A stretch of 43,637 nt of DNA from positions 72,835 to 116,471 of the forward strand of contig VGJO01000002.1 of assembly GCA_016867415.1 (NCBI GenBank), read 5' to 3'. The stretch's first letter is position 1. The number at the start of each line of letters is the position of its first letter. Below are positions 83 through 37,296 of the stretch, one piece after another. Both the position numbers and the translations under genes were made by a program. Under the pieces are notes generated by a model. The model did no database searches, was not told the DNA's origin, and saw only the letters and a program-made list of their open reading frames with translations. Source of the DNA: Candidatus Harrisonbacteria bacterium. Lineage in GTDB: Bacteria > Patescibacteriota > Minisyncoccia > UBA6257 > UBA11618.

Positions 83-205
83 AAGCGAAGTACTTTTTCG
101 AGGAAATTTCGATTTTTCTTGTGAGTACGCACCGAAGCATACTAGGAAAGTCTGTGAGGAGCGAACGGAATAAAAAAATCGAAAGTTACCGAAAAATACG
201 AGCGC
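83..205 (+). repeat. ERIC/RPE-like palindromic element, copy 1 (subtype A)
   Basis: AAGCGAAGTA..TTTCGATTTTT..GAAGCATACTAGGAAAGTCTGTGAG..AAAAAATCGAAA..TACGAGCGC; nested inverted arms. Confidence 0.85.
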
Positions 206-218
206 CCTACCCTAAAAA

Positions 219-1130
219 ATGTTTACTACTCTTTTTAGACTCTTTAGATACGGCTCCCAAAATTTCTTAAGAAACAGCTGGCTCTCCGCCGGCACTATTT
301 CCATTCTTCTTCTCACTCTCCTTGTTTTCCAAGGTCTCCTTATCTTCCGCGTCTTGACTGCTATTGGTATCGATAGCCTAAAAAGCAAGATTGACATCAG
401 CGTCTACTTCAAAGTCGAGACCCCTGAGCCCGCCATCCTCGCCATCCGCGATCGGGTGGAAACCCTCGATAAAGTCGCCGAAGTGGAGTACGTCAGTCGC
501 GATAAAGCCCTGGAGCTCTTTAAGAAAAAATACGAAAACGACCCCTCGGTCACAAGCGCCTTGGCCGAGCTAAAAGACAATCCTTTGAGCGCCGCGGTCA
601 ATATCCAGGCTAAAAATCCCAATGACTATTCCGAAATCAGCACCTATCTCGAAAATCAAAAAGAATGGCAACCCTTCATCGAAAAAATCACCTACCGGCA
701 AAATCAGCTCGTCATTGACCGGCTCGCCAAGATCGTGGACACCACCGAAAAATTTGGCTTCATTCTCACCTTTCTCCTCTCTCTTGCCGCTATCCTAGTC
801 ACCTTCAACACCATCTCCCTCGTTATTTATTCCAATCGTGAAGAGCTCGGCATCATGCGCCTTGTCGGCGCCCCCGATTCCTTAATCGTCGGCCCCTATC
901 TTGTCACTTCTTTAATCTATTCTGCAATTGCCACCCTTCTCTCCACCATTCTCTTTTACCCGCTCATCAAATTCTCCTCTCCCTATCTCAAATTTTTCCT
1001 CTCCTCGACCGATCTTGAGAGCTACTACTTGAGCCACCTCTTCTCCTTGATGGGCTTCGCTCTCCTCTTTGGCTCAGTCCTCACTATCGTCTCCGCCCTT
1101 ATCGCCACCCAAAAATACCTCAAGATCTAA
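219..1130 (+). CDS. ftsX: Cell division permease FtsX
   Basis: RNSWLS N-terminal motif, TM1, extracellular domain with NPL motif, then NTI..IYSNREELGIMRLVGA and 3 more TMs. Confidence 0.92.
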   Translation: MFTTLFRLFRYGSQNFLRNSWLSAGTISILLLTLLVFQGLLIFRVLTAIGIDSLKSKIDISVYFKVETPEPAILAIRDRVETLDKVAEVEYVSRDKALELFKKKYENDPSVTSALAELKDNPLSAAVNIQAKNPNDYSEISTYLENQKEWQPFIEKITYRQNQLVIDRLAKIVDTTEKFGFILTFLLSLAAILVTFNTISLVIYSNREELGIMRLVGAPDSLIVGPYLVTSLIYSAIATLLSTILFYPLIKFSSPYLKFFLSSTDLESYYLSHLFSLMGFALLFGSVLTIVSALIATQKYLKI

Positions 1131-1137
1131 AAAGAAT

Positions 1138-2823
1138 TTATAAGTTCTTTTGTTTCTCTTTAATCTCATTAATAAGATCAATAGATCTTTTTCGGCTAGG
1201 ATTAAATTTATGATTAGGATTCTGCTTTATTGCCGTTTGTAAAATATCAATTCTGTGATTAAGGTCTTGCTCGCTCTCTTCAATTCCTTTTTGAATGTTA
1301 TTATATACCCTCTGCCACCAAGCCTTGCTCGCCGCATCTCCCGCATTCTCAATCCTTTCTTTAATATTAGCTAGTAAAATAGACTTATCATCATATGGCG
1401 GACCGAGTTCCTCAGAAGAGATATCCTTCGGAGTGCATACCGAAACCTTCTTATTAGGCCGAATTACCGCCACACAAAGATAGACATTATAACCATTTTG
1501 GTCTTTTCCACAATTTGGCCTATATCGATCAAATCCTCCTGGCTTAATCGGCCCCTTCACACATTCTCGCGCACTACTTACCATCGCAAGCCTGGGTCCC
1601 TGAGGTCCATATACTTTAGTGATAAAACCAACTACTTTACCAACTAACTTTCCATCTTTTTTAATATCTCCTGAAATTGCTCCATTATGCCGTCCCGCTT
1701 CGGTATTAGAAAACAAGACATCAGGACTAAATCGCACATCCAAAGGCGCCATATAATCACCCTTCTCCACTCCTAAAGAGGAAAGAGAAACAAAAAGATT
1801 CGGATCAATCTTTTTTACGTTTATTCCATATGAACCTGCTTTTTCGTACTCTCCCCAAGTATTGGTCGGATTGATCGCAGGAATGCTAACATTCGGCTCC
1901 TTATCAAAATCATAATCATCCCGAGCATCTACCACTTCTACCGGCCTATCAGAAACCGTCCACAAGTAACAAGCATCTACTTTCCCGGTTTTTGTATTTT
2001 TCCAAACCGCAAATCCATAAATATCCGCAAAAGCCGAGGTAAACTGATCGCTATCATTTTGCGCTCGCGGCACCGGAATAACGATATTCGCTCCAAAAGA
2101 TATTCCTAACTGATAATAAGTATTATCTCCACTCTGCTCCCCAGGTTTTCCCGGAGTTTCCACGCCACTTCCTCCTCCAAATCCCGTTTGAGGCGGAGTA
2201 GGTGGTGATACTTCTACTCCCTCTCCCTGAATAGAACCTAATTCAATTCGAAATTTATTTTCTTGCTGATATTGAATACCTGCCATATATGAACTTGAAC
2301 AAGTAACTGAAAAATATGACAAATACTGACCATTAGGCAGCTTATTAGAAGAAATGGCGTTCCAAGCTTCAGTTCTCCCAAAACCCACCCGTCCCTTAAT
2401 CAGGTTAGGATCATTATTGAAAGGACAACTCGATTGCTCTTTAGGAATAATCGCAGGTTTTGTTGGTAGTAAATTATGAATAAAACAAACCGCTCCGTTT
2501 TTAAGGCCAAACCTCACCCCATCAAGAGAAGCTGTATGAGAACAGTCTTTTTCCTTACATTGTGGAATAAAAACCAATTTCCCATGCTTATATTCTTCAA
2601 AGTAATCACTGCATCTATAAAGTTGTCTTCCTTCAATATTACCAAAATAAGTACATAAAATAATTTCGGAAGTGATTTCCATCTGTCCTGTTTCCGGATT
2701 CCGAATAAGTTTCTTAGTGAGAAGTGTTGTTGGTGGTCGAGATTGAGCAAGCGCAACTCCGCTAACTAAAAAAAGAAAAAGGGGAAGAAATTGCTTCACT
2801 TTATAAGTATACCAAAGAGACAT
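1138..2823 (-). CDS. Hypothetical secreted protein with Cys pairs (561 aa)
   Basis: Long ORF with a signal-peptide-like N-terminus (FLPLFLFLVSGVALA); no recognised motif. Confidence 0.7.
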   Translation of the reverse strand: MSLWYTYKVKQFLPLFLFLVSGVALAQSRPPTTLLTKKLIRNPETGQMEITSEIILCTYFGNIEGRQLYRCSDYFEEYKHGKLVFIPQCKEKDCSHTASLDGVRFGLKNGAVCFIHNLLPTKPAIIPKEQSSCPFNNDPNLIKGRVGFGRTEAWNAISSNKLPNGQYLSYFSVTCSSSYMAGIQYQQENKFRIELGSIQGEGVEVSPPTPPQTGFGGGSGVETPGKPGEQSGDNTYYQLGISFGANIVIPVPRAQNDSDQFTSAFADIYGFAVWKNTKTGKVDACYLWTVSDRPVEVVDARDDYDFDKEPNVSIPAINPTNTWGEYEKAGSYGINVKKIDPNLFVSLSSLGVEKGDYMAPLDVRFSPDVLFSNTEAGRHNGAISGDIKKDGKLVGKVVGFITKVYGPQGPRLAMVSSARECVKGPIKPGGFDRYRPNCGKDQNGYNVYLCVAVIRPNKKVSVCTPKDISSEELGPPYDDKSILLANIKERIENAGDAASKAWWQRVYNNIQKGIEESEQDLNHRIDILQTAIKQNPNHKFNPSRKRSIDLINEIKEKQKNL

Positions 2824-2843
2824 TACAAAAAATATTTTTTAAT

Positions 2844-3902
2844 TTAATACCGACAGCAAAAAACAGAAAGAGTCGAAGAGTAATCAATCGAAGATTCCGT
2901 CCGATCTTTAAAAAAAGTTCTAGCTAAGTAATAAGGAGTAGAAAAAATAAGATTCCATACAAAGGAGGCAATCTCTGAATTAGTACTCTTAAAGAAAACA
3001 AAAGTTGTACTATTTAAAGCAGTTGTCAGATTAGCATATGAATATGTCGCAGTAGTACACGACCCAGCGCTACTCGGCCAATCCGCCGCACTGCATACCC
3101 ACCAATTTTTTGGGCACGCTCGGCCTGCATTCTCCCAATGCGCCGTCATCTTAGAACGGGAAATTCGAAAAGTCTCCCCATTTACCGTCTTCGTGCATTC
3201 TCCCGCGGTATTTACCACTACATTTGCGTCAGTATTCTCCCCCCAAATCCGCTCAAATGTCCCCGAAAATCCGGTATTAGCCGTCCCCACTGTAAAATCA
3301 CTCGCGCTTGTCGTGCTATAAGCGGCATCCAGCTTCGTACCGGTAGTGGCGCTTAAAATATTTCCTAAAGCTAAAGATGTCGTCGGCACCGCAAGACTAA
3401 TCACCCCCGCCACACTTCGAGTAAACGGAAAAGTTTTCTTACTTGCGCCGATATAAAAATCCTGAGAAAACTTCAGTCCTCCTAAAATATCCAGTTTCCG
3501 AAGCGGCGTTGATGTTCCCACTCCTACATTTCCGCTTGAAAGAATAGTAAGTCTCGTCTGATCATTAGCAATAAGAGAAAAAGGCAAACTTGTCTCCGTC
3601 CCTACGAAGACAGAATTACCATCATTTTCCAATCGAACTGAATCACTTCCGGATTTCACTATTACTCGGACATTCCGATTAGTATCATTACCCGGAAAAA
3701 TCTCTACCGAAGATGTGTTTACACTTGTCACAAGCTGCAGCTTCCCCGACCCCGATCCCGGAGTCAGATTCCCCGGCCCACTCGCCTCCAGAAAGCTTTC
3801 TTTCTCTGATAACACTCCATAAAAAATAAGACCTAAAAAGAGAAAGAAAAGAACTATAAAACCGCCTCTTAACAATCGTTTCTTTTGCGTCTGTTTTTTC
3901 AT
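2844..3902 (-). CDS. Putative fibre-like surface adhesin, paralog A (GNVGVGTSTP motif, C-type-lectin-like tip)
   Basis: N-terminal TM, GNVGVGTSTP, WENAGRACPKNWWVC, terminal VFCC. Start set at ATG 3902, which overlaps the paralog B stop (TAATG). Confidence 0.75.
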   Translation of the reverse strand: MKKQTQKKRLLRGGFIVLFFLFLGLIFYGVLSEKESFLEASGPGNLTPGSGSGKLQLVTSVNTSSVEIFPGNDTNRNVRVIVKSGSDSVRLENDGNSVFVGTETSLPFSLIANDQTRLTILSSGNVGVGTSTPLRKLDILGGLKFSQDFYIGASKKTFPFTRSVAGVISLAVPTTSLALGNILSATTGTKLDAAYSTTSASDFTVGTANTGFSGTFERIWGENTDANVVVNTAGECTKTVNGETFRISRSKMTAHWENAGRACPKNWWVCSAADWPSSAGSCTTATYSYANLTTALNSTTFVFFKSTNSEIASFVWNLIFSTPYYLARTFFKDRTESSIDYSSTLSVFCCRY

Positions 3903-4999
3903 TAGTTTGATTGTTTTACTCGGCAACACCAAGGTGAGACCACATCACACACCTCACTTGTTGAAAGAGCTGCGTCCGTACCATCGCTTTTAATAGCCCG
4001 GCCATAAAATTTAGTTGCTGTCCCCAAACCTGAAAATTGCCCCTCTGCAATCCATGAAGCGTCCAGTGAAGTGATCGGCCGAATCTTACCGAGATTTGTC
4101 CCTGATCCATCCGCCTGACACTCAAAATACTGAGCTGAGGTCAAAGCAAACCCCGTCGCTCCCCCGCCCGTCCCGCAGTTCACCCCCGCCCGCTCCGTAG
4201 CCGAGCACACCCACCATCCCTTCGGACACCCCGCCTGCGCCCCCTCCCACCGCGTCGGCACCTTTGACCGCTTCATTTCAATAGTAACTCCGCGAATCGT
4301 ATTTTCACACGAGAGTCCGCCCGATCGGGAAATAAGATCCGCGGCTTCATCCGCTCGGCCAGTTCCCATCAGCCGATTCCGGCAATCTCCTGAAGTCGAG
4401 CAGGTATACCCCGGACTCGTCCGCAAAATGACCGACCCGCGCAAAAGCGCGTTCCCCCGCACATCGAGTGCCTTCCCTACTGTGAAAATATCCAGAGCAG
4501 TGCTTTGAAGAAAAAGTACATCAGTCGTCGTCACGCCCGTGATCTGCGTCTCCGCCGGCAAATTTTTCTTCCATGGCAAAGACAATATTCCACTATTATT
4601 AGAAAAAGTATCCGTCAAATTCAAATCCCCATTTACCGTCAAAGTTTTTCCCGGGGTACTACTCCCGATCCCCACTCGAGAATCAGCAAGAATTGATACT
4701 TGCTCCACCGCATTTGTAAGAATTCGCACCGCCTTTACCGCCTCCGTTCCAAAATACACCTTATCCACTCCATCTCCTGCATCCCTCACCACAAAAAATC
4801 CTCCCTTCGTTCCATTCCGGTGCGTGAGTAAAAAAGCAATATCTAAGGGCGATGAAAGCGACACATTGCTCCGCGCATTATTAATGACAAAAATCCCCGC
4901 TCCATTCGGCGGCGTAGTGCCGCTCGGCGGATCCGAATAGGCAAAAACCAATTGAGAAAAGATAAGAAATAAGAAGTTGATAAAAATAATCTTTTTCAT
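3902..4999 (-). CDS. Putative fibre-like surface adhesin, paralog B
   Basis: Signal peptide, SRVGIGSSTP, WEGAQAGCPKGWWVC, terminal PWCC. Start is 4999 or 5008. Confidence 0.75.
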   Translation of the reverse strand: MKKIIFINFLFLIFSQLVFAYSDPPSGTTPPNGAGIFVINNARSNVSLSSPLDIAFLLTHRNGTKGGFFVVRDAGDGVDKVYFGTEAVKAVRILTNAVEQVSILADSRVGIGSSTPGKTLTVNGDLNLTDTFSNNSGILSLPWKKNLPAETQITGVTTTDVLFLQSTALDIFTVGKALDVRGNALLRGSVILRTSPGYTCSTSGDCRNRLMGTGRADEAADLISRSGGLSCENTIRGVTIEMKRSKVPTRWEGAQAGCPKGWWVCSATERAGVNCGTGGGATGFALTSAQYFECQADGSGTNLGKIRPITSLDASWIAEGQFSGLGTATKFYGRAIKSDGTDAALSTSEVCDVVSPWCCRVKQSN

Positions 5000-5007
5000 A
5001 AAAAACA

Positions 5008-6117
5008 TCATAGGCCACAGCACCATACCGGCCGATAATTACATAACTCCCCGGCAAAATCTGTATTAGCCACTCTCGTACCTGATTCATTAATGAGCAC
5101 CCCCCGCCGATAAGCGCCACTTCCAGTATTATATCCTGCTCCGCCGGAGATCTGGTTTACGGAATCCAGCACCCAAGCATACCCACCGCCATTTGCCGCC
5201 GTCCGGCTCTCATAAAGCGTCAAGCCGTCACTTGCTCCCTTCTGAATACTGCTCGCCCCTAAATTACATCGGAGAATATTTGTTGTTACCGCTCCAGTAC
5301 CACAAGGGCCATAACCTGCTCCTGTCCCATTAGTATCCCGCTCACTCGCCTCACACACCCACCAATTTTTCGGGCATGCCGCCGCCGCGCCATCCCAAGC
5401 AGTCACCACTTTGGATCGCGACATCTTCACACTACCTTTCACACATTCTCCAGCCGAATCTACAAGAAAACTCTCAGGTACCCGTCCCTGTCCATAGGTA
5501 TGCGCTTCAGAGAGGGTCAACGTCCCTGCATATCTTACAAATCCCCCAGCATACAATGTATCCGAAATATTGGCGCCTCCCCCAATCACGAATTGCTGAG
5601 TCGCCGTAGAAAAACTACTTGTCCCCACCCCAAACGTATTTGACGGCACCTCAAGAATTATGCTCCTCGTATTCGTCGAGTAGGTAAATGGAAAATACTG
5701 CTTCACTCCCCGAATATAAAGATTCCCAGACTCCGCAAGCCCCACATCCCCCGAGACCTCAAGCGCCACGCTCGGCGTACTCGTCCCTATTCCCACATTC
5801 CCGTTTGGCAAGATTGTCAGTCGCTTCACTCCTGAAGTGATTAGAGAAAAAGGATGATTAGAAGTAGTCCCAAAGTACCCCCCTTTCCCAGCAACTATCC
5901 GCAAGCCCGCGCTCGCCCCAGCGCTTTTTACAAACATAAGACTCCCTGAAGCCGATGATAATGAAGAAAACGTCAGCCGCGAGTTCAAAGTATCTTCAAA
6001 ATATTGCATCACCGGTAGAAGATTCACCGAACTTGGATCCGCGCTCGGCGGCACGATCGCAAATGCCAAAAAAACCTGAAAGAAAAAGAAAAGAAAGAGA
6101 GAAGCAATAAGCCTCAT
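5008..6117 (-). CDS. Putative fibre-like surface adhesin, paralog C
   Basis: Signal peptide, GNVGIGTSTP, WDGAAAACPKNWWVC, terminal VWCC. Confidence 0.75.
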   Translation of the reverse strand: MRLIASLFLFFFFQVFLAFAIVPPSADPSSVNLLPVMQYFEDTLNSRLTFSSLSSASGSLMFVKSAGASAGLRIVAGKGGYFGTTSNHPFSLITSGVKRLTILPNGNVGIGTSTPSVALEVSGDVGLAESGNLYIRGVKQYFPFTYSTNTRSIILEVPSNTFGVGTSSFSTATQQFVIGGGANISDTLYAGGFVRYAGTLTLSEAHTYGQGRVPESFLVDSAGECVKGSVKMSRSKVVTAWDGAAAACPKNWWVCEASERDTNGTGAGYGPCGTGAVTTNILRCNLGASSIQKGASDGLTLYESRTAANGGGYAWVLDSVNQISGGAGYNTGSGAYRRGVLINESGTRVANTDFAGELCNYRPVWCCGL

Positions 6118-6185: not shown

Positions 6186-6908
6186 ATGAAAGCTCTCAAC
6201 GACCCCTACGATAAACGCAATTGCTATCTTTCGCTTTTTCCCGGCGCTGGTGGTGATGACGCCAAAGATTTTTCCGAGATGCTTCTTTCCATGTACCGTA
6301 AATATGCCGAAAGTCGGGGTTGGAAAGTTCTTTTTGCCGATGACCGCGAGCTCTACATTCAAGGTGAATACGCCTACGGGTATCTAAAAAACGAATCCGG
6401 CGTCCATCGCCTCGTCCGCATCTCCCCCTTTTCTTCTAAAAAACTCCGGCACACCTCTTTCGCTTTAGTCGAAGTGATTCCCGAACTCCCCGAAATTGAC
6501 GCTCACAATTTTTCTATCCCTCCGGAAGACCTAAAAATCGAGCTCGCTCGCTCCTCCGGCCCCGGCGGCCAAAATGTAAATAAGCGCGAGACCGCCGTCC
6601 GGATCGTCCACCTGCCTACTGGCATTGCCGCGAGCTCCCAGATGGAACGCAGCCAGCCGCAAAATAAAGACCGCGCCCTCAGTATGGTCAAAGCAAAACT
6701 TCTCCGCCTTATGGAAGAGAAAAAAGCAAACGAATTAAGCAGTCTCCGCACTAAAGTCGCTCCCGAGTGGGGCAATCAGATCCGCTCCTATGTGCTCCAC
6801 CCCTACCAGCAAATCAAAGATCACCGCACCGGCGTAATCTCCCACCAACCCGACCGCGTCCTAGAAGGCGACCTCGACAAATTCCTCGAATCCGAACTCG
6901 AAAAATAA
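6186..6908 (+). CDS. prfB: Peptide chain release factor 2, lacking N-terminal domain 1
   Basis: SPF stop-recognition motif (VRISPF), GGQ (GPGGQNVNK), SQ..NK..A, WGNQIRSYV. Confidence 0.88.
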   Translation: MKALNDPYDKRNCYLSLFPGAGGDDAKDFSEMLLSMYRKYAESRGWKVLFADDRELYIQGEYAYGYLKNESGVHRLVRISPFSSKKLRHTSFALVEVIPELPEIDAHNFSIPPEDLKIELARSSGPGGQNVNKRETAVRIVHLPTGIAASSQMERSQPQNKDRALSMVKAKLLRLMEEKKANELSSLRTKVAPEWGNQIRSYVLHPYQQIKDHRTGVISHQPDRVLEGDLDKFLESELEK

Positions 6909-7406: not shown

Positions 7407-7457
7407 AAAAAAAGATTACTGATTGTAAAATAAATATAAAACAATCTCAATTATAAG

Positions 7458-7582
7458 ACGCGGGCTTTTTCGAGGAAATTTCGATTTTCTTTCTGAGTAT
7501 CGAGCGGAGCATAATAGGAAAGTCTGTGAGCGCGAAATGGAAGAAAAAAATCGAAATTAATGGAAGAAAAAAATCGAAATTA
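7458..7582 (+). repeat. ERIC/RPE-like element, copy 2 (right arm has a 23-bp tandem duplication)
   Basis: GGAGCATAATAGGAAAGTCTGTGAG core; ATGGAAGAAAAAAATCGAAATTA twice, at 7537-7582. Confidence 0.8.
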
Positions 7583-7601
7583 AAAGAAAAAGACAAAAGC
7601 T

Positions 7602-8436: not shown

Positions 8437-8512
8437 ACCTCAAGTATAATTCCCACTCTAAAAAAACAAAATGGGCAAGGAAAAAATATCAAGTCACGTA
8501 AAATAAAAAATT

Positions 8513-8635
8513 AAGCGAAGTGATTTTTAACTTATTTTCGTTCTTCTTTTTGAGTGCACCCCGGAGCATACTAGGAAAGTCTGTGAGGAGCGAACGGAGA
8601 AAAAAGAATGAAAAGAAACCAAAAATAGAACAAGC
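8513..8635 (+). repeat. ERIC/RPE-like element, copy 3
   Basis: AAGCGAAGTG..GGAGCATACTAGGAAAGTCTGTGAGGAGCGAACGG.. Confidence 0.85.
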
Positions 8636-8640
8636 AGAAG

Positions 8641-8849
8641 CCAAATAAATCTTTGGCTCGAACCTCCTTCTCCAAAACAAATCAGTGCGCGCCAGCGCGC
8701 CGAATTTTGAGAATTCGCTTGCGAATTCAGGCGAAACAGCGTGGGCGTGTCTAGGGCACGCCCACACCATCTTTGACATTTCCGACAAAAGTCGGGTCTT
8801 GGAGTATCTTTACGACTTCGCTCGAACTTACTTTATCAAAAATTCCTGA
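8641..8849 (+). pseudogene. 3' fragment of a second, diverged large serine recombinase
   Basis: Reads AK*IFGSNLLLQNKSVRASAP..AWACLGHAH..RVLEYLYDFARTYFIKNS*; aligns with AKEIFGSNLVLANREARLRAP..HWAALRAAH..LILE of the recombinase at 10436. Confidence 0.8.
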
Positions 8850-9075
8850 CTTTCGGAAGCCCGCCGCTCGCCGCCGCAAAGCGGCGGCCTGCCTCGGAGA
8901 AAATTTTACTTCACATTTTTAATTTGCGCGCGTTACAAAAATTTCAATTAAAGGAGAAACAAAAACTTTCTGCTAGGCCCCTTTTGATGATATAAAAAAA
9001 TTCATAAGAAATAATCTTATGGTGATATGCATGTCATTATTCCAAAATATATAGTATATTAAGAATAATAGCTTT

Positions 9076-9573
9076 ATGATCACTCCCCAATTCTTATTAA
9101 TAGGAATTTCTTCTCTAGCAATTTTATTAACTTTAAGCATATTTGTTTTTGTTAAAAAACCTTCTTCATGGCTTTGTTTTATCATTGGGCCGATTATTGT
9201 TTTTTTGGGAATTATGACAACTTTGCTTTTTAATTCTGACATCAGTTTTTTTATGTTATTTGGTGCTATTTTATTATTTATTGTTATTTTGGTAGAAGGG
9301 TTTTGTTTGATGAAAATAATTAATGGAAAGGGCTATATTAAAGCTTTCTTAATTGACATAGCTTATACTCTTTTGACTATCTTTTTTGCTGCTCTAGGAC
9401 TTTATCTACATTTTATAATAAGTCAGCCTAAACCTAAAAGCGTTGACTGGGATCTTCCTTATTTGTTTATTTTCTGGCCCTATATAATTATTTTAACCAT
9501 TGTAATGAATGTTATTTTTCTAATTGTTGGTTTAGCGGTATCTACAAAGAATAACTCTGATGCAAAATATTAA
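9076..9573 (+). CDS. Hypothetical multi-TM membrane protein (cargo 1)
   Basis: About 5 hydrophobic segments; markedly AT-rich DNA. Confidence 0.7.
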   Translation: MITPQFLLIGISSLAILLTLSIFVFVKKPSSWLCFIIGPIIVFLGIMTTLLFNSDISFFMLFGAILLFIVILVEGFCLMKIINGKGYIKAFLIDIAYTLLTIFFAALGLYLHFIISQPKPKSVDWDLPYLFIFWPYIIILTIVMNVIFLIVGLAVSTKNNSDAKY

Positions 9574-9949
9574 AACAAAACCATTTATATTGATTTTAAG
9601 TGGTGTTATATTAGGATTATTTACTTCTTTAAGTGGAATTGGCAATTTTATTCTTTCAGCTATTACGGGTAAGTACACTTACTTATGGACCATACAAAGA
9701 TGGCTCGATATAACAAATGTTATAAAGTTTATATACAGCGACTCTTTGCTAATACCGATATCATCAATAATAGGATTCATTTTATGTATAGCTCTTATTT
9801 TCTTGTTGGTAGAAATTTCGAAACAGTTTAATAAAAAAATATTTATCGCCAGTACTTTGTTAGGGTTTGTAGGTATAATCCTTGGTTTAGGATTAGGCGG
9901 CATTCTTGTTATGATTGGAGGTATTCATGGACTAGTATACAAATCATAA
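9560..9949 (+). CDS. Hypothetical multi-TM membrane protein (cargo 2)
   Basis: Hydrophobic segments, Gly-rich TM hairpin (GIILGLGLGGILVMIGG); overlaps cargo 1. Confidence 0.7.
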   Translation: MQNIKTKPFILILSGVILGLFTSLSGIGNFILSAITGKYTYLWTIQRWLDITNVIKFIYSDSLLIPISSIIGFILCIALIFLLVEISKQFNKKIFIASTLLGFVGIILGLGLGGILVMIGGIHGLVYKS

Positions 9950-10010
9950 ATATTTTAACTATTTTTTCTTAAAATATTCCTTTCCTTTTTAGAAGAATTT
10001 TTTGGTGAGG

Positions 10011-10322
10011 CGCGCGCAATCAAAATGAGAGGTAAATTTTTCTGCGAGGCGGGCCGTCGCTTTGTGGCGGCGGGCGGCGGGCTTCCGAAAGTCAGGAATT
10101 TTTGATAAAGTAAGTTCGAGCGAAGTCGTAAAGATACTCCAAGATTAAACTTTCCGATTTTTGACCGACCATTTGATGGGCCGCCCGCAGGGCGGCCCAA
10201 TGGTTTTCCCCCGACAAATCCTCTCCGCTCGGCGCGCGCAGGCGCGCCTCGCGGTTGACCAAGACGAGGTTCGGAATCCAATGCAATTTTAAATATTTGC
10301 TTGCCCGACAAAAAGAATTTTT
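10011..10322 (-). repeat. Inverted, internally deleted mini-copy of the recombinase gene with attP-like junction and 3' flank
   Basis: 10137-10273 matches 11838-11974 (137 bp, 2 mismatches); 10074-10144 is identical to 8797-8867; three 15-17 nt blocks match LSR 10455-10469, 10822-10838 and 11777-11791. Confidence 0.9.
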
Positions 10323-10413
10323 ACTATAATGACCTTGTAACCAATCCGCAGAGTTGTCTTTTTTGATGGCCGTCTCTGTCAGTTCAAGGCAACTTGGATT
10401 GGTTACAGCAAGG
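10301..10413 (+). promoter_or_regulatory. Putative LSR promoter (TATAAT 10325-10330) followed by a long leader hairpin
   Basis: TGTAACCAATCC (10336-10347) pairs perfectly with GGATTGGTTACA (10396-10407); inner stems AGTTGTCTT/AAGGCAACT and TGATGG/CTGTCA. Confidence 0.55.
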
Positions 10414-10435
10414 ACGGCCTTTAAAGTTTATAACT

Positions 10436-12154
10436 ATGCAAAATTTATCCACGCAAAAATTCTTTTTGTATGCCCGCAAGTCCACCGATGTTGAAGATAA
10501 ACAGGTTTTGAGTATTGAGGCACAGATCACAGAATTGCTTGCCTTCGCCAAGCAAGAAAATCTTTTCGTCGTTGAGGAATTAGTTGAAAAACAGTCAGCC
10601 AAAATTCCGGGTAGACCGATTTTTAACGAAATGATGAAGCGCGTGGAGAATGGTGAAGCGAACGGAATTTTGGCCTGGCATCCCGACAGATTGGCGCGCA
10701 ATTCTGTTGACGATGGCAAGATAATTTACTTTTTGGACTGCGGGCATTTGGCAATGTTGAAATTTCCCACCTTTTGGTTTGAGAATACCAGCCAAGGAAA
10801 ATTTATGCTCAACATTGCCTTCGGGCAAAGCAAATATTATGTGGATTCTCTTTCCGAAAATACGAAACGAGGCTTGAGACAGAAGGTCAGGCGCGGCGAA
10901 TATCCTTCACTCGCTCCGATTGGTTATCTCAATGATCCACGAACAAAAACTGTTGTAGTGGACAAAAAGACCGCGCTCATCGTTCGCCGCGCCTTTGAAC
11001 TCTACGCGGAAGGCAATCAAACGCTCCAAGACATCGGAGAATATTTTGAGCAAAACCGCCTCGTTTCCAAAAGCGGAAAGAGAATCCACATCTCCAGAGC
11101 GACTTTTATCCTCTCTAACCCGTTTTACACCGGCCTATTCCGCTATGCTGACGAAATATACGAAGGCAAGCACGAGCCAATAGTGGCAAAGAAACTTTGG
11201 GACAAAGTGCAGGAAGTGATGAAGCAGAGAGGGCGTCCAAGACATAAAACGCAGATTGAACCAGAAGCATATTGCGGATTGTTGTCGTGTGGCTATTGCG
11301 ATATGCAAGTTACTGGCGAATACAGGGTGAAAACACAAAAGAATGGCACGCAACATTTCTATACTTACTACCACTGCACTAAGAAATCTAAAAGCATCAA
11401 ATGTCCCGAACCCCGTATTCGCCAAGAAGTCTTGGACGAGCAAATATCATCACTTCTGCAAAAAGTTTCTTTGCCACCGGATTGGGCGGAATACTTAAAT
11501 GAAAAACTTGAAAAAGACAAAAATGAATCCGCCCAATCCGTTTCTGCTTTTGTAGCAAAGAATGAAAAACGACTTGTTGAAATATCCCTTAAACTTCAGC
11601 GACTTCTTGATGGCTATTTGGAGCAGGACATAGACCGTGAAGTTTATCGTCAAGAAAAGGCAAAGTTATTGAGTGAGAAAAAGTCGCTGGAGGAGCAAAA
11701 CACCACTTTTCTACAAAAGCAGAAACATTGGCTCGAACCGATGCAAGAATGGATAAAAGTCTCAGGAAATCTGGAGAAAATTGCATTGGATAGCAACCTT
11801 TTTGGCAAAAAGGTTGCCGCCAAAGAAATCTTTGGCTCGAACCTTGTCTTGGCCAACCGCGAGGCGCGCCTGCGCGCGCCGAGCGGAGAGGATTTGTCGG
11901 GGGAAAACCATTGGGCCGCCCTGCGGGCGGCCCATCAAATGGTCGGTCAAAAATCGGAAAGTTTAATCTTGGAGCCGAAGGCGAGAGTCGAACTCGCGAC
12001 CTTTGCTTTACGAAAGCACTGCTCTACCACTGAGCTACTCCGGCATCGCCTCGCTGAAGCTTACAAGCGAAAGCGGGCCTTGCCTCGCCATAATATCGAG
12101 GCAGAAAAAATCTCTTATAAAATAACAAAAATCCCCCTTTCCGGCAAATTATAA
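10436..12154 (+). CDS. Large serine recombinase (resolvase, recombinase and Zn-ribbon domains); last 59 codons are antisense tRNA and flank sequence
   Basis: YARKST catalytic motif, WHPDRLARN, GLRQKVRRGEYPSLAPIGY, LSNPFYTG, GLLSCGYC..YYHC, coiled coil. ATG 10436 preferred over TTG 10394. Confidence 0.93.
   Translation: MQNLSTQKFFLYARKSTDVEDKQVLSIEAQITELLAFAKQENLFVVEELVEKQSAKIPGRPIFNEMMKRVENGEANGILAWHPDRLARNSVDDGKIIYFLDCGHLAMLKFPTFWFENTSQGKFMLNIAFGQSKYYVDSLSENTKRGLRQKVRRGEYPSLAPIGYLNDPRTKTVVVDKKTALIVRRAFELYAEGNQTLQDIGEYFEQNRLVSKSGKRIHISRATFILSNPFYTGLFRYADEIYEGKHEPIVAKKLWDKVQEVMKQRGRPRHKTQIEPEAYCGLLSCGYCDMQVTGEYRVKTQKNGTQHFYTYYHCTKKSKSIKCPEPRIRQEVLDEQISSLLQKVSLPPDWAEYLNEKLEKDKNESAQSVSAFVAKNEKRLVEISLKLQRLLDGYLEQDIDREVYRQEKAKLLSEKKSLEEQNTTFLQKQKHWLEPMQEWIKVSGNLEKIALDSNLFGKKVAAKEIFGSNLVLANREARLRAPSGEDLSGENHWAALRAAHQMVGQKSESLILEPKARVELATFALRKHCSTTELLRHRLAEAYKRKRALPRHNIEAEKISYKITKIPLSGKL
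11970..12044 (-). tRNA. tRNA-Thr(CGT)
   Basis: GCCGGAGTAGCTCAGTGGTAGAGC..TTCGTAA..GTTCGACT..TTCGGCTCCA; 75 nt. Confidence 0.95.
12047..12077. repeat. Short REP-like hairpin directly upstream of tRNA-Thr
   Basis: CGCCTCGCTGAAGCTTACAAGCGAAAGCGGG, an imperfect hairpin with G.A mismatches. Confidence 0.4.
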
Positions 12155-12196
12155 GTATATAAAAACAGCCCAGCTAAAAGGCTAGAAAGAATACTA

Positions 12197-12322
12197 ATTT
12201 CCGAGGATTTTTTTCCAAAGACAAGACATTTCAGAAAAATATGCGAGAGGCATACATAAGGGAAGTATGTCGACCAAATATTTTTCTGAAATAACACAGT
12301 ATTTGGGAAAAAAGACCAAAAA
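12197..12322 (+). repeat. ERIC/RPE-like element, copy 4 (subtype B)
   Basis: TTTTCCAAAGACAAGAC..GAGGCATACATAAGGGAAGTATGTCGAC..TATTTGGGAAAAAAGAC; inner arms TCAGAAAAATAT/ATATTTTTCTGA. Confidence 0.75.
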
Positions 12323-14611: not shown

Positions 14612-14647
14612 ATAAAAATATTCCAAATTAATTTGGAATATTTTTAT
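14612..14647. other. Perfect loopless 36-bp palindrome
   Basis: ATAAAAATATTCCAAATT|AATTTGGAATATTTTTAT. Confidence 0.9.
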
Positions 14648-15328: not shown

Positions 15329-15461
15329 GGAAGATTTTCCAAGGATTTTTTTCCAAAGACAAGGCACGAGTGAGCAACACTCGCGAGGCATACATAGTGG
15401 GTATATGTCGAGCGAGGAAGCGGAGCGATCAACGCAATATTTGGGAAAAAAGACTGTAAAA
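15329..15461 (+). repeat. ERIC/RPE-like element, copy 5 (subtype B)
   Basis: TTTTCCAAAGACAAGGCACG..GAGGCATACATAGTGGGTATATGTCGAG..CGATCAACGCAATATTTGGGAAAAAAGAC. Confidence 0.75.
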
Positions 15462-16956: not shown

Positions 16957-17078
16957 CCGCGAAATAATTTTGGAGAATTTTTCGATTTTCTTTTTGAGCA
17001 GCGAGCAGAGCATACTAGGAAAGTCTATGAGCACGTAGCACAGAAAAAAAATCGAAAAAGACCCAAAAGTACGAGCGC
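16957..17078 (+). repeat. ERIC/RPE-like element, copy 6
   Basis: CCGCGAAATA..AGAGCATACTAGGAAAGTCTATGAG..AAAATCGAAAAAGACCCAAAAGTACGAGCGC. Confidence 0.85.
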
Positions 17079-17088
17079 TAAAAAAAGA

Positions 17089-17847: not shown

Positions 17848-17942
17848 AAGCGAGGTTTCCCGTTTCTTTTGAGGACAAGACCGGAGCATACTGAGTGGTA
17901 GTATGCGAGGACTTACCGGAGAAAAAAACGGGAAAATTCGCC
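17848..17942 (+). repeat. ERIC/RPE-like element, copy 7 (shorter)
   Basis: AAGCGAGGTTTCCCGTTTC..GGAGCATACTGAGTGGTAGTATGCGAG..AAACGGGAAAATTCGC. Confidence 0.75.
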
Positions 17943-17962
17943 AAAAAGACAAGATCGCAACA

Positions 17963-22395: not shown

Positions 22396-22600
22396 GCCCT
22401 GCACCATTTTTATGCGAGGAATAGTCCTGTACCAGACAGTGCAGAGCAAAGGACAAAAACTAAAGATCAAAAACCAAAAGCTCCAAGCCTGAAGAGTCAA
22501 AGCTACTTGCGGAAGGCAAACCAATCGTTCTGGTCGTTGAAGTAGCTGACCCAAGCCAGGCGTGCCCCGCGTCGCCCCAGCACATATTGCATGTCCGCAC
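22396..22600 (-). pseudogene. Probable 3' relic of a DGR-target-like gene (VR-like end, heptamer tract, hairpin)
   Basis: VRTCNMCWGDAGHAWLG/VSYFNDQNDWFAFRK* with a 1-nt frameshift; ~7-nt periodic nCTTTG tract after the stop; 10-bp stem at 22396-22447. Confidence 0.45.
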
Positions 22601-22721
22601 CCGCAAGATTTTTCGAATATATTTCAATTTTCTTTGCGAGCAGCGAATGGAGCATACTGGATCTGAATGTGTAAGCACACAGCGCAACAAAAAAATGAAA
22701 ATAACTGAAAAAGACCAGTGC
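22601..22721 (+). repeat. ERIC/RPE-like element, copy 8
   Basis: CCGCAAGATTTTTCG..GGAGCATACTGGATCTGAATGTGTAAGCACACAGCGC..GAAAAAGACCAGTGC. Confidence 0.8.
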
Positions 22722-22725
22722 CTCT

Positions 22726-24088: not shown

Positions 24089-24177
24089 AAAGATTTCAGA
24101 ATCACCGTAAATAATAAAATTATTCTGAAGCATTACAGAATTTTCCGATTTTCTTTCGTCACATCAGCACCTAACAT

Positions 24178-24301
24178 AAGCGAAGTAATTTTGAGTTTAT
24201 TTTCGTTCTTCTTTTTCAAAAAGCCACCGGAGCATACTACGGGAAATATGCGAGGAGGATTTTTGGAAAAAAGAATAAAAAGAAGCCAAAAGTACGAGCG
24301 C
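24178..24301 (+). repeat. ERIC/RPE-like element, copy 9
   Basis: AAGCGAAGTAATTTTG..GGAGCATACTACGGGAAATATGCGAG..CCAAAAGTACGAGCGC. Confidence 0.85.
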
Positions 24302-24308
24302 TAATCAA

Positions 24309-27739: not shown

Positions 27740-27862
27740 AAGCGAAGTAATTTTGGAGGATTTTTCGATTTTCTTTTCGAGCAGCGAGCGGAGCATACTC
27801 CAGAAAGTCTGTGAGCACACAGCGCAGAAAAAAAATCAAAAAAGACCCAAAAATACTAGCGC
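27740..27862 (+). repeat. ERIC/RPE-like element, copy 10
   Basis: AAGCGAAGTAATTTTGG..GGAGCATACTCCAGAAAGTCTGTGAGCACACAGCGC..CCAAAAATACTAGCGC. Confidence 0.85.
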
Positions 27863-27874
27863 AAGCGCTCGCAA

Positions 27875-33375: not shown

Positions 33376-33404
33376 AGTATAGCACCTTATAAAAACTTTG
33401 TCAA
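33376..33404 (-). promoter_or_regulatory. Near-consensus sigma70 promoter
   Basis: TTGACA-17 bp-TATACT on the minus strand. Confidence 0.8.
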
Positions 33405-33441
33405 AGAAAATTAAAAAGATTCAAAGATCATTAGTCATTAA

Positions 33442-33472
33442 TGCAAAACCGCCCCCGGGGGGCGGTTTTGCA
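33442..33472. terminator. GC-rich, almost loopless palindrome downstream of recR
   Basis: TGCAAAACCGCCCCC/GGGGGGCGGTTTTGCA. Confidence 0.6.
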
Positions 33473-33562
33473 AAACATATAACAGTGAGTCACCTGAACT
33501 CTCACCAATTACAGAATACCAAAAGTAAAAATATGCCGTCAACCAAGTTATCCACAGAAAAA

Positions 33563-34156: not shown

Positions 34157-34267
34157 AATTACTGATTATATAATTTCACATGAACCTTTGTCAGTCCCAC
34201 AAAGTAATCTTAGAAAAAAATAAATACAATTTATTAAAACAATATTAAGTAGATATTAATGGCAATT

Positions 34268-34390
34268 CCGCGAAGTAATTTTGGAAGATTTTTTGATTTT
34301 CTTTTTAAATAGTGAAGGAAACAATACTGGACTAAGTCTGTGAGCACGCAGCGCAGAAAAAAATAGAAAAAAACCCAAAAGTAAGAGCGT
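34268..34390 (+). repeat. ERIC/RPE-like element, copy 11
   Basis: CCGCGAAGTAATTTTGG..ATACTGGACTAAGTCTGTGAGCACGCAGCGC..CCAAAAGTAAGAGCGT. Confidence 0.8.
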
Positions 34391-34397
34391 CTTCTCG

Positions 34398-35765: not shown

Positions 35766-35891
35766 TGTCCCACCATTATCCTCCCCCAAAATAATTCCCG
35801 CAAGATTGACAATCCGATTAATAAAAATCCCAGGTAATGTATTCCCCGGGATAAAAAAGAAAAGAATTGAAATTTACTGAAAAAGATCAGC

Positions 35892-36203
35892 TTATACCAC
35901 AGAGGTAATCTCTATCTCAGTCTGCCACTGCCGATGTCCTTTCTTCGTCGCCCGTCTCGTCTTTGAGCTATATTTATAAACAATCAATTTCTTCGCCCGA
36001 TCAGTTTTCACAATTTTCCCGGTCACCTTCACTCCGGAGACATATGGCTTCCCTACCTCCACTCGATCCCCATCCACTAAAAGCAATACTTTATCAAAAA
36101 TAACCTCCGCTCCCGAGTCCCCTGCAATCTTCTCAATTTTTATTTTCTTTTGAGGCTCCACTCGATACTGCTTTCCTCCCGCCTCGATTACCGCGTACTT
36201 CAT
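35892..36203 (-). CDS. rplU: 50S ribosomal protein bL21
   Basis: MKYAVIEAGGKQYRV..GKPYV..KGHRQWQT. Confidence 0.96.
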   Translation of the reverse strand: MKYAVIEAGGKQYRVEPQKKIKIEKIAGDSGAEVIFDKVLLLVDGDRVEVGKPYVSGVKVTGKIVKTDRAKKLIVYKYSSKTRRATKKGHRQWQTEIEITSVV

Positions 36204-36207
36204 GAAT

Positions 36208-36537
36208 TTAATTAACGCTAATGATAACAAAAACTTGAATAAATAGCAAGATCACCAGAAGAAAACTCGTAACTCCCAAAAATAAGCTTAAAATCCGCTC
36301 TCGAAAGTAGCAAAAAAAGGCTAAACCCAAGTTAAGGATACTGAGCCCCAACCCCATTATTGCCATCTCATAGAGCAAATTTCGAGAAGAAAGGAAAGTC
36401 ACATCGGATCGCTGTTTAAAATAAACAAGCAGTAGTCCCGAAATGTCCTGCAAATACACGAAAAGAAATCCAAAAACAAAAAGAAGCACCGCCGCCGCCC
36501 CTAAAAACCAATAAAAAAATTTTGGATATCCCAACAT
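36208..36537 (-). CDS. Small 3-TM membrane protein
   Basis: Three hydrophobic segments; abuts rplU. Confidence 0.65.
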   Translation of the reverse strand: MLGYPKFFYWFLGAAAVLLFVFGFLFVYLQDISGLLLVYFKQRSDVTFLSSRNLLYEMAIMGLGLSILNLGLAFFCYFRERILSLFLGVTSFLLVILLFIQVFVIISVN

Positions 36538-37175
36538 AATCTACGTCCTATAATACTTGAATCCGACAAAAAAACGCTAGTCTCCTCTAAAAAGTAATTA
36601 AAAAAGAGATATCTCAAGTGGGCAAGCCCAAAGAGCCAAGCCTCTCCCTCCTGCAATTGACTAATGAATAATTTTTTATTATAAAAATAATGCTCATTAA
36701 AAACTTCCGGCACCAAATAAAAAACTGCGATCCGTGAAAAAACCTTCAATCTTCTAAAACTTTCTCTTCAGGTGTAGAAACTACAGCAAGTAAAAACCTG
36801 CTTCTTTTTTTCCACACCCCCCTTCTTCAGGAGTAGAAAAGTGATCCGCTAAAAATCCGAGAAGCTTCTCTGTTCTCTTCTTCTTTAGTTTGGGAAAATC
36901 GTAGTTCTGAAAAAAGACTTGAATCTTCTCGAACTTCCCTCTTCAAGCGGGTAAAACACGTCAACTAAAAAACAAGTCCTTTTTTACCCGCTTTCCCATT
37001 CCCTGCATCATATGGTACAGGGAATTTTTTATTATTTTTTTCAAACTTAAAGTCAGAGACCAAGTAAAAAGTATAGCCACGCGTAAATAATTTCTGAAGA
37101 TTTTTTCTAAATAACTAGCGGCCTTTGAGCATCCTGCTAAATAAGATACTTCTATAGACATTGCGTTAAAGTCAG

Positions 37176-37296
37176 ATTTCGGAAGATTTTTTGGCAAAAA
37201 CAAGACACGAATGAACATTCAACCAAAATGTACTTCGGTGGGTACTTCACGGGAGAGGGCAGAGAGAGTAACGCAATTATTCCCAAAAAAGACTTG
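37176..37296 (+). repeat. ERIC/RPE-like element, copy 12 (subtype B, degenerate core)
   Basis: GGAAGATTTTTTGGCAAAAACAAGACACG..GTACTTCGGTGGGTAC..TAACGCAATTATTCCCAAAAAAGACT; flanks match copy 5. Confidence 0.65.

Follow-up and report, generated by a model that had tools for sequence, protein, structure and literature searches.

Two families of hairpin-forming palindromic repeats in a freshwater Patescibacteria lineage

The recurrence of small palindromic elements along a 43,637-nt stretch of a Patescibacteria genome (the whole stretch analysed, hereafter the window) raises the question as to whether they are relatives of known repeats such as ERIC, and whether they are mobile DNA or structures maintained by the host. 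A sequence-only reading had described 12 intergenic copies of one ERIC/RPE-like family, and all 12 indeed carry the element, on the + strand and between genes. The repeat is real, however alignment and modelling give two families, so that the 12 copies of one family are really 9 + 3. Family A comprises 9 copies of ~124 nt whose scores of 88-137 bits hold by construction, as the covariance model was built from these same copies; independent support comes from the rest of the window, which never exceeds 20 bits, and from the reverse strand of the copies, which scores at most 44 bits. The 3 copies of family B (~130 nt) are mutually alignable and reach 16 bits or nothing with the A model (nhmmer 2.9 bits). 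B is thus a sister family of A, the two having in common only architecture, orientation, niche and short motifs. The family ends that had been quoted (GCGAAGTA..TACGAGCGC) were verified in the sequence, as were the cores (GAGCATAC..GTCTGTGAG and GGCATACATA..GTATGTCGA), with the sole exception of copy 37176, from which the B core is missing. The copies, with covariance model scores in bits and folding given as minimum free energy (MFE) or z against shuffles, are as follows.

83..207, +: family A, between ftsE (stop 59) and ftsX (start 219); 126.6 bits; MFE -35.9, z -4.3. The only copy within a + strand operon (FtsE by gene call, FtsX by Pfam).
7456..7600, +: family A, right end 1 nt from the stop of a SurA-like gene (7602); 116 bits. 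The right arm is tandemly duplicated and the left end lies 51 nt upstream of tRNA-Gly (-).
8513..8636, +: family A, within a 93-aa ORF (8489-8770, -); 123 bits. Alone among the 12, this copy does not reach a gene boundary on the right; the ORF, annotated as a gene in public assemblies, has no Pfam match and is probably spurious.
12190..12322, +: family B, 1 nt after the lepA stop (12324); MFE -37.2, z -6.5. Located 152 nt upstream of tRNA-Thr (-).
15329..15460, +: family B, 1 nt after the aspS stop (15462); z -3.1.
16957..17080, +: family A, 10 nt after the efp stop (17089); 132.7 bits.
17848..17958, +: family A, a divergent copy between the divergently oriented efp and mnmA; 88.5 bits; MFE -38.4, z -5.1. 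The likely start of mnmA (ATG 17963) follows 4 nt beyond the right end, and promoter-like sites lie to the left.
22599..22723, +: family A, 3 nt after the stop of a DUF8128 gene (22726); 99 bits. Further downstream on the - strand, beyond the copy, is a terminator-like hairpin with a T-run.
24178..24303, +: family A, 7 nt after the stop of a sigma-r4/HARE-HTH gene (24309); 112 bits. Read on the - strand, a canonical terminator comes next, then a -10 box.
27740..27864, +: family A, between the secD start (27606, -) and tRNA-Lys (+, 27875); 136.5 bits. The 5' end of tRNA-Lys is 12 nt beyond the right end.
34268..34392, +: family A, 6 nt after the dnaB stop (34398), with a degraded apical core; 101.9 bits; z 0.0.
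37176..37299, +: family B, 3 nt beyond the tRNA-Glu (-) 3' end; z +0.8, a poor fold. Its ends are conserved while the core has diverged.
24137..24157, +: possible left-arm remnant, 20 nt left of copy 24178, 95% identical to the left arm of 16957; nhmmer E 1.1, not significant.
35859..35891, +: possible remnant of a right arm, adjoining the rplU stop (35892), 83% match; nhmmer E 0.41, not significant.
42152..42259, +: possible degenerate relative with A-like outer ends and core remnants; 19.7 bits, E 0.08; z -2.3. The polarity of the inner arms is swapped (5' A-tract, 3' T-tract).

Together the elements account for 3.4% of the window and for roughly a quarter of the DNA between its genes, a density of dozens of non-coding units of ~125 bases per 100 kb. 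Contigs of the same species hold 7 more copies, 6 of family A (one a weak match cut by the locus end) and 1 of family B, oriented as in the window and including one between rplJ and rplL and one after rplL.

Most copies fold far above shuffled sequences (z -3 to -7.8), and modelling indicates that every copy can form one hairpin of ~50 bp with a fixed irregular geometry, either as RNA or as single-stranded DNA. Its outer stem segments are GCG, AGTA and TTTTGG; inward of these follow a T-tract/A-tract stem, a 2-3-2 bp helix split by a conserved pair of A.A mismatches, an internal loop of G.A/A.G and a 7-bp apical stem in which GCATACT pairs with AGTMTGY. Over the 44 stem positions pairing is kept in 85.9% of stem cells, against 41-55% when the partners are slid by 1-3 columns, and 20 of the 44 pairs are altered on both sides, values reached by none of 500 shuffles. 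Five purine-purine mismatches (A46.A87, A50.A83, G54.A80, A55.G79 and G42.A92) are themselves conserved in 11-13 of 14 copies. The structure, mismatches included, has been conserved through compensatory change despite a mean pairwise identity of only 64% (range 48-92%), with a nearly invariant apical motif and covarying stems. Mismatches of the G.U type and of the A.C type are equally common (28 and 30), so that the folding strand cannot be named.

The position of the copies beside genes is equally constrained. About 7 right ends had been placed within ~2-20 nt of a stop codon or tRNA 3' end, an understatement, as in 11 of the 12 window copies the right end comes within 1-13 nt of where a gene or tRNA begins or ends; the median gap is 4 nt on the right and 135 nt on the left (Wilcoxon p = 0.001), and the product of the uniform-placement probabilities is 10^-15.6. 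Each of the four tRNA genes has a copy at most 150 nt away, as had been noticed. Most copies come immediately after a stop codon or the 3' end of a tRNA and precede the real terminator, and a few lie between promoter and start codon or inside an operon. Canonical terminators and then promoters are found to the left of several copies, which places these in transcribed 3' or 5' untranslated DNA. The flanking genes (ftsE, efp, dnaB, rplJ, rplL, aspS, lepA, a tRNA and others) have no functional theme.

All 19 copies share one orientation over ~58 kb of uniform GC skew. As the three copies beside + strand genes (ftsX, mnmA and tRNA-Lys) are also + oriented, orientation tracks the chromosome strand and not the transcript, gene direction and replication direction being confounded across nearly the whole region. 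A search of the flanks for target-site duplications or a conserved flanking dinucleotide found neither. The sequence-only reading had also reported that no transposase is present, which holds for classical transposases as well as for RAYT and IS200-type genes in the ~58 kb examined, but passes over a large serine recombinase (10436-12154) that, with a Xer-like tyrosine recombinase, makes up the recombinases of this region.

Core patterns were scanned against 185,579 species genomes, the JGI metagenomes and IMG/VR. Outside this species these gave single chance matches only (10 genome, 17 metagenome and 0 viral contigs), none of which scored with the covariance model, and Rfam contains no match. 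Seven loci of syntenic relatives (~105 kb; AspRS ~70% identical) likewise contain no match, and several of their corresponding gene junctions, sigma/DUF8128/virD4 and lactamase/aspS/ndk, are only 0-52 nt long and too short for a copy. The family is thus confined to one freshwater Patescibacteria species in all collections searched. The description of a dense, non-coding family in a Patescibacteria genome, one with no transposase inside it, is borne out, and its absence from syntenic relatives fits a lineage-specific non-autonomous element. The closest database relative, with ~71% AspRS identity, is too distant for dating when single sites were gained or lost, and there is no presence/absence polymorphism among the sampled strains, which are 99.7-100% identical.

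The proposed kinship with ERIC is not supported. RPEs insert in frame in genes, and no such insertion was seen here. ERIC (~127 bp, also IRU or RU-1) does resemble the family in being a single long imperfect palindrome of this size, non-coding, present in tens of copies and strictly intergenic, in transcribed regions at gene 3' ends, where it is expected to affect how stable the flanking mRNA is or how it is processed (PMC3184786). Copy 8513, and no other, gives a gapped alignment with the ERIC core in which 41 of 54 positions agree; its score is 36, where with shuffled ERIC the best of 14 copies reaches 19.7 +/- 2.3, and the mean score across all copies is slightly raised. However, a blastn search with one copy returned nothing at E <= 10 from 5,426 E. 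coli genomes (28 Gb), nhmmer of ERIC against the window gave E = 13, the family HMM misses the ERIC core, and pattern scans found 0 copies in other sequenced species. ERIC-type MITEs carry TA flanks and target duplications (PMC3184786) while the copies here have neither, lie on one strand only, have T/A-tract-rich arms and reside in a Patescibacteria species, not an enterobacterium. Horizontal transfer of a true ERIC or RPE homologue is accordingly extremely unlikely, and the repeats resemble ERIC only in size, architecture and niche. The reading as a single ERIC-like family is therefore partly refuted on its own terms, as the copies split into two families and show no ERIC core similarity at the family level.

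Other small repeats offer further parallels. Integron attC sites and the Vibrio cholerae repeats (VCR, ~125 bp) are also ~125-nt imperfect palindromes lying directly after ORFs in one orientation, and it is the folded single strand that is recognised, its structure and unpaired bases counting for more than its sequence; here, though, the flanking genes are conserved syntenic housekeeping genes and not cassettes, no RYYYAAC/GTTRRRY core sites occur in those copy sequences that were read, and there is no integron integrase. Correia/NEMIS elements of Neisseria, whose RNA hairpins are RNase III substrates, and MITEs such as RUP, Nezha and Chunjie share dispersal, intergenic location, a length of 100-160 bp, terminal complementarity, co-transcription and long RNA hairpins, but our repeats show no TA target duplication, no promoter-like hexamers at their ends and no related full-length insertion sequence. 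REPINs, hairpin-forming units linked to RAYT transposases, are similarly ~100-nt extragenic non-autonomous units with no target duplication, a hairpin conserved within the genome and a predicted fold in ssDNA or mRNA (PMC3116915). Here, by contrast, the best conserved parts are the apex and the T/A stems and not two terminal REPs of 20-40 nt, the GTAG or CGTC tag (PMC3733652) is absent and no RAYT gene was seen in 58 kb.

Given their position right after stop codons and their strong hairpins, the copies might be signals for ordinary transcription, repeated through re-use of either an intrinsic terminator of unusual length or a promoter module. We consider this very improbable, since on both strands a T-rich arm precedes and an A-rich arm follows the hairpin, so that no U-run follows, and genuine GC-hairpin-plus-T-run terminators and TTGACA/TATAAT promoters stand separately to the left. 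Consensus scanning found no recurring promoter or terminator inside the copies of the scanned stretch, the sole exception being one weak terminator-like match in B copy 15329, and some copies lie inside operons (ftsEX, rplJL). A site acting as duplex or cruciform DNA, its phased T/A tracts binding an architectural or replication-linked protein as BIME or Correia elements do with IHF or gyrase, and its polarity reflecting replication direction, would suit the co-orientation of all copies, the tract-rich arms and the balance of G.U-type and A.C-type mismatches, which is expected where neither single strand is privileged. It is nonetheless an improbable reading: conserved mismatches and bulges matter only in a self-folded strand, the arms being unpaired with each other in ordinary duplex, the T-tracts lack regular 10-11 bp phasing, no candidate binding protein is known, and relatives do without the element.

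A possible but rather doubtful alternative is that the repeats are not selfish DNA but a host cis-acting structured RNA, or structured single strand, in which hairpins in 3' UTRs and leaders would be recognised by a double-strand RNase or an RNA-binding regulator, selected copy by copy as a lineage-specific post-transcriptional module over many housekeeping genes. It would account for structure and mismatch identity persisting under sequence drift, for the invariant apex above covarying stems, for copies always lying on the transcribed side of terminators and promoters, tight to a coding or tRNA boundary, and for the absence of transposition signatures (target duplications, polymorphism). It sits poorly with syntenic relatives that run the same genes wholly without the element, with neighbours lacking a theme, and with an orientation fixed to the chromosome strand, so that transcripts carry either sense; nor does G.U exceed A.C, which leaves no strand-specific RNA signal, and the possible decayed fragments and the degraded core of copy 34268 suggest turnover.

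The reading we prefer, at about even chances, is of two related families of non-coding imperfect palindromes that are non-autonomous, structure-constrained, recognised in trans as hairpins and co-transcribed with their host genes. Families A and B would have multiplied within one freshwater Patescibacteria lineage, moved by an enzyme specific for the folded hairpin; missing target duplications and a uniform strand orientation point to single-strand transfer of the HUH/RAYT or IS200 type, and away from a MITE moved by cut-and-paste. Co-transcription, 3'-end location and effects on mRNA stability are published for ERIC and other MITEs (PMC3184786). Once inserted, the copies here would likewise be co-transcribed with the host gene, and the hairpin on the host mRNA may act as a 3'-end barrier or as a processing site for a double-strand RNase, as for ERIC, REP and Correia elements. 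Against this reading stand the missing target duplications, transposase genes and presence/absence polymorphism, the confounding of gene and replication direction, and the age and divergence of copies that nevertheless keep their pairing and particular mismatches, a pattern that selfish spread explains no better, and perhaps less well, than a host function with selection on each resident copy. The repeats are a new, lineage-specific addition to the small palindromic repeats already known (ERIC, REPIN, MITE-like) and not a relative of ERIC.

An element was present at all 12 positions named by the sequence-only reading, every one of them on the + strand, and a repeat finder run without prior information recovers the repeat family. 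Nine of these copies, named here by their left (lower) coordinate, form family A (83, 7456, 8513, 16957, 17848, 22599, 24178, 27740 and 34268; about 124 nt). A covariance model built from them (R1) scores its nine source copies at 88-137 bits, as it must by construction, and independently of model building it stays below 20 bits everywhere else in the window; on the opposite strand of the family A loci it reaches at most 44 bits. The other three copies (12190, 15329 and 37176; about 130 nt) receive 16 bits or nothing from R1 and no more than 2.9 bits from nhmmer. They align with one another and with a fourth copy on a neighbouring contig, and since they are mutually alignable and barely seen by R1 we treat them as a sister family, B, so that what had been proposed as a single family is split in two. 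Common to both are the orientation, the niche, the T-tract/A-tract design, the left-terminal motif TTTTGGAGGATTTTT and the apical motif GAGGCATAC..GTATGTCGA. With lengths of 109-143 nt the elements take up about 3.4% of this core-gene region and roughly one quarter of the DNA between its genes. The original observation is confirmed and refined, and the sequence-only reading was right in kind in describing a dense, non-autonomous palindromic repeat.

Only the four tRNA genes of the window pass the gathering threshold in Rfam 15, no Rfam family reaching it at the elements, and relaxed scans with one A and one B copy returned generic hairpin (miRNA-precursor) matches only, far below threshold. 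A third repeat family was not found in the remaining intergenic DNA of the window, which holds local palindromes and terminators only, and an arm-only HMM search for decayed arm fragments gave a few suggestive matches beside full copies (24137, 27690 and 35861), none of them significant. At copy 7456 the right arm is tandemly duplicated (7534-7600, GGAAGAAAAAAATCGAAATTAA repeated twice). A perfect 36-nt palindrome, AAAAATATTCCAAATTAATTTGGAATATTTTT (14612-14647), lies 18 nt past the stop codon of ndk, sharing its 559-nt spacer with a canonical terminator; it resembles two outer element arms joined and is possibly a collapsed copy.

Most copies fold into a single long hairpin on either strand, with fold z-scores mostly between -3 and -7.8 relative to dinucleotide shuffles and a few degraded copies falling outside this range. 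Mean pairwise identity among the A copies is 64% (range 48-92%), and alignment of 14 distinct copies to the model, a step that the sequence-only reading had proposed, shows that they share a covarying 44-pair hairpin. Standard pairs occupy 85.9% of the cells in this proposed structure compared with 41-55% when partners are slid by 1-3 columns, both sides have changed at 20 of the 44 pairs (69 cells), and none of 500 column shuffles reached any observed measure. Pairing reaches 75% in the outer helix (columns 3-18 with 113-128), whose ends are GCGAAGTA..TACGAGCGC, and the apex GGAGCATACT..AGTCTGTGAG is almost invariant. Conserved mismatches (A.A at columns 46/87 and 50/83, G.A at 54/80 and 42/92, and A.G at 55/79) are kept in 11-13 of the 14 copies, with neighbouring base pairs covarying. 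As read from the alignment this pattern is more in keeping with a protein-recognised folded nucleic acid than with inverted repeats in neutral decay. The counts of G.U-type and A.C-type mismatches are balanced (28 vs 30, one conserved apical G.T being set aside) and therefore the data do not indicate which strand folds.

The genes of the window are an ordinary core, including ftsX, a short prfB-like gene, lepA, ndk, aspS, efp, mnmA, secDF, dnaJ, dnaK, grpE, recR, dnaB, rplU and the mraZ/rsmH/PBP/Mur cluster, almost all of them on the - strand. Relatives of its AspRS come from Patescibacteria only, the closest at 71% identity. Freshwater lake metagenome contigs, 99.7-100% identical to the window and encoding proteins identical to those of the window, extend the region to about 58 kb, which together with two short contigs makes up the same-species sequence covered. 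The extra copies in the extended region are oriented as in the window. Copies on these contigs and at L024, a separate same-species contig locus, are as follows.

Copies of the element in same-species sequence
Same-species contigs, after the LTD-domain gene: family A copy
Same-species contigs, after the lactamase_B gene: family A copy
Same-species contigs, between rplJ and rplL: family A copy
Same-species contigs, after rplL: family A copy
Same-species contigs, after the SLFN/AlbA_2 gene: family B copy
L024, directly 3' of a small membrane-protein gene: one clear copy
L024, cut by the locus end: weak second match

Comparison of these 99.7-100% identical strains revealed no insertion polymorphism and one SNP within an element. 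Several further features of the window were recorded. The release-factor gene at 6186-6908 encodes 240 aa only and is without the usual N-terminal part, its PCRF match beginning at profile position 91, and the gap to the upstream gene is only 68 nt. Four consecutive large ORFs without a Pfam domain (561, 352-362, 374 and 369 aa) occupy 1138-6117 (-), across which GC is locally up to 0.51. To the left of family B copy 37176 lies a gene-free stretch of about 640 nt (36538-37175) with several local hairpins and no Rfam match.

All copies are intergenic and their placement within the spacer is asymmetric. Of the 12 window copies, 11 have their right end at 1-13 nt from a gene or tRNA boundary, and the gap on the left is larger (median 135 nt; Wilcoxon p = 0.001, 12 window copies); copies on other contigs with a readable right flank are equally tight at the right end, some overlapping the stop codon. 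For eight window copies the right boundary is a 3' end (seven - strand stop codons and the 3' end of tRNA-Glu) and in another three a + strand gene begins there (ftsX, mnmA with its likely ATG at 17963, and tRNA-Lys). Reading onward on the - strand from several copies (24178, 22599, 16957 and 34268) we find canonical GC-hairpin-plus-T-run terminators and, beyond the copies, TTGACA/TATAAT-type promoters of the next gene, giving the order stop, element, terminator, promoter, next gene; at + strand genes the order is promoter, element, start. From these positions we infer that the elements occupy the transcribed, untranslated part of the spacer. The tight right gap would follow from such a location, with all functional sites to the left, and from a deletion-prone small genome that retains no spare bases on the right side.

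The elements themselves were rejected as intrinsic terminators because an A-rich arm and not a U-run follows the hairpin on both strands. A promoter or terminator role was likewise discarded since there is no consensus match, the true terminators lie elsewhere and copies lie within the ftsEX and rplJL operons; over the stretch scanned, a consensus search put no more than one weak terminator-like site within the copies. At L024 707-930 (-) a tRNA gene that has a bidirectional terminator of textbook form (AAAAAATCGCGCC..GGCGCGATTTTTTT) stands immediately before the element copy, which shows ordinary intrinsic terminators to be in use in this organism besides the repeats.

The element is open in several frames, and public gene calls already run ORFs through copies, so that an element model would improve annotation. 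A 93-aa ORF at 8489-8770 (-), listed as a gene in public assemblies, spans copy 8513-8636, has neither homologues nor domains and was probably called in error because of the repeat. The listed start of the mnmA ORF (17903) falls inside an element and the Pfam domain begins at residue 26; as the in-frame ATG at 17963 gives the usual N-terminus, this is probably the true start.

All 19 copies share one orientation across a region of uniform GC skew. Three copies beside + strand genes are not flipped, which suggests that orientation follows the chromosome strand and not transcript sense, a reading drawn from these three cases as gene and replication direction are confounded elsewhere. Inspection of the flanks of 14 copies found no target-site duplication or direct repeat at any copy and no conserved flanking dinucleotide, the left dinucleotides being AA, CC, AC or GC and the right flanks unrelated. 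The uniform polarity together with the absence of a target duplication and of a flanking dinucleotide argues against a cut-and-paste MITE. Single-strand, hairpin-recognising HUH systems (IS200/IS605, REP/REPIN-RAYT) yield such polarity without duplication (PMC3116915). No autonomous insertion sequence with element ends was seen in the region of about 58 kb and the two short contigs, nor was a RAYT (Y1 HUH) gene flanked by repeats seen in the same-species sequence covered, where the only recombinases are a large serine recombinase and an Xer-like recombinase (L024). The former lies in a segment (8788-12154) bracketed by two pairs of long inverted repeats.

Features of the serine-recombinase segment
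8788-8941 / 10000-10153: inverted repeat pair, 88-92%
10137-10273 / 11838-11974: inverted repeat pair, 99%
10436-12154, + strand: large serine recombinase gene with Resolvase, Recombinase and Zn-ribbon domains

The repeat at 11838-11974 overlaps the 3' end of the recombinase gene and the 3' end of tRNA-Thr, and the whole looks like an invertible or integrated segment. No inversion of it was seen, three assemblies being identical there, and a suspected inversion between assemblies proved to be a difference in gene calls only, the sequences being identical. Upstream of mraZ and beside an AT-rich stretch is a DnaA-box-like cluster (42031-42133) containing TTATCCACA twice and TTATCCACT once; near-matches to the DnaA box number 24 in the whole window against 8.8 expected. 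There is no GC skew switch at 42.0-42.1 kb and the cluster is probably not the origin of replication.

Outside the species the family was sought with a degenerate core pattern, one that 6-7 of the nine A copies fit. It gave 10 matches in GTDB species representatives (185,579 species), 19 in the JGI metagenome set, from which most contigs of this species are evidently absent, and zero in IMG/VR. The only loci among these that score with R1 are two metagenome loci, both on same-species contigs and from the same lake samples, and all remaining matches were dismissed as single chance matches that fail to score. Seven loci from related genera (about 105 kb) contained no match, no analogous repeat and no large hairpin. 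Four of the seven preserve the gene order dnaJ-secD-secF-sigma/HARE-DUF8128-virD4...aspS-ndk-lepA, and their sigma/DUF8128/virD4 junctions measure 16-52 nt compared with 296-372 nt with elements here; the distance from aspS to the next gene is 0-100 nt in relatives compared with 209 nt (aspS to ndk) here. Orthologous junctions are empty at several sites in syntenic relatives, which are only about 70% identical in AspRS. This absence from relatives and the pattern scans indicate a family specific to this lineage, and the search of other Patescibacteria envisaged by the sequence-only reading finds the element confined to this species in the collections scanned. A six-frame peptide search with 13 A copies against a collection of 5.8 billion proteins gave no match at E <= 10, low-complexity words swamping the candidate list, and full-text literature searches returned no description of such repeats in Patescibacteria or CPR.

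Kinship with ERIC, suggested at the outset from size and core, was rejected at the family level. The ERIC core (GTGAATCCCCAGGAGCTTACATAAGTAAGTGACTGGGGTGAGCG) was taken from the standard ERIC primers and confirmed at 100% identity in 5,426 of 5,426 complete E. coli genomes; blastn of the element against these genomes finds nothing, nhmmer with an ERIC copy against the window gave E = 13 and the family HMM does not match the ERIC core. Copy 8513, and no other, can be aligned to the core, with 41 of 54 positions matching and five gaps (score 36 against 19.7 +/- 2.3 for shuffles), a curiosity that possibly reflects convergence in a GC-rich apical hairpin. Like ERIC (about 127 bp) the elements are imperfect palindromes, intergenic and apparently transcribed, but ERIC-type elements have TIRs with 5'-TA-3' flanks and target duplications (PMC3184786), whereas the present elements have neither TA flanks nor a target duplication. 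They possess terminal inverted repeats as a generic MITE does but are without its target-site duplication.

A REP measures 20-40 nt and bears a GTAG or CGTC tag (PMC3733652), and a REPIN consists of two inverted REPs with a spacer (PMC3733652, PMC3116915); in contrast, our element is a single 124-nt hairpin whose conservation peaks at the apex and not in two terminal REPs, with no consistent GTAG or CGTC at either end. Integron attC sites, which go with cassette genes and an IntI integrase, are alike in following ORFs, in their uniform orientation and in depending on structure more than on sequence, but their RYYYAAC..GTTRRRY core motifs (R''/R') do not occur in the copy ends that were read and the neighbours here are syntenic housekeeping genes and not cassettes. 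The RPE of Rickettsia is a palindromic element inserted in frame in protein-coding or RNA genes. Our elements are all intergenic with no in-frame insertion in genes, so the likeness to RPE originally proposed is not upheld, the comparison having been made by insertion site.

The element belongs to a known class of repeat, and what is unusual is its structural conservation, its strict polarity and a host phylum in which repeats would not be anticipated. Most likely, at about even weight, is a lineage-specific repeat that would have spread within the lineage by a hairpin-dependent route and now resides in UTRs, with a probable influence of the hairpin on mRNA ends. The main rival explanation, to which we give less weight, is that the host has a use for the copies and they are retained for that reason. 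We think it unlikely that the hairpins are, instead of passive selfish DNA, the cis part of a system particular to this lineage, with its own protein reading the conserved apex together with the A.A and G.A mismatches. Such a system, at the same low weight, could be an as yet undescribed route of single-strand mobilisation in Patescibacteria, strictly strand-polar and leaving no target duplication, or a post-transcriptional module, by now domesticated, through which a minimal genome processes or stabilises the mRNAs of many of its core genes.

Genomes of Patescibacteria are small, tightly packed and usually described as repeat-poor. Contrary to this picture roughly a quarter of the intergenic DNA of a core region is here a hairpin repeat, from which syntenic relatives are entirely free. 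The family is a clear example of compensatory change preserving a structure, specific mismatches included, and it bears on the old question of whether ERIC- and REPIN-like elements are selfish, useful or both.
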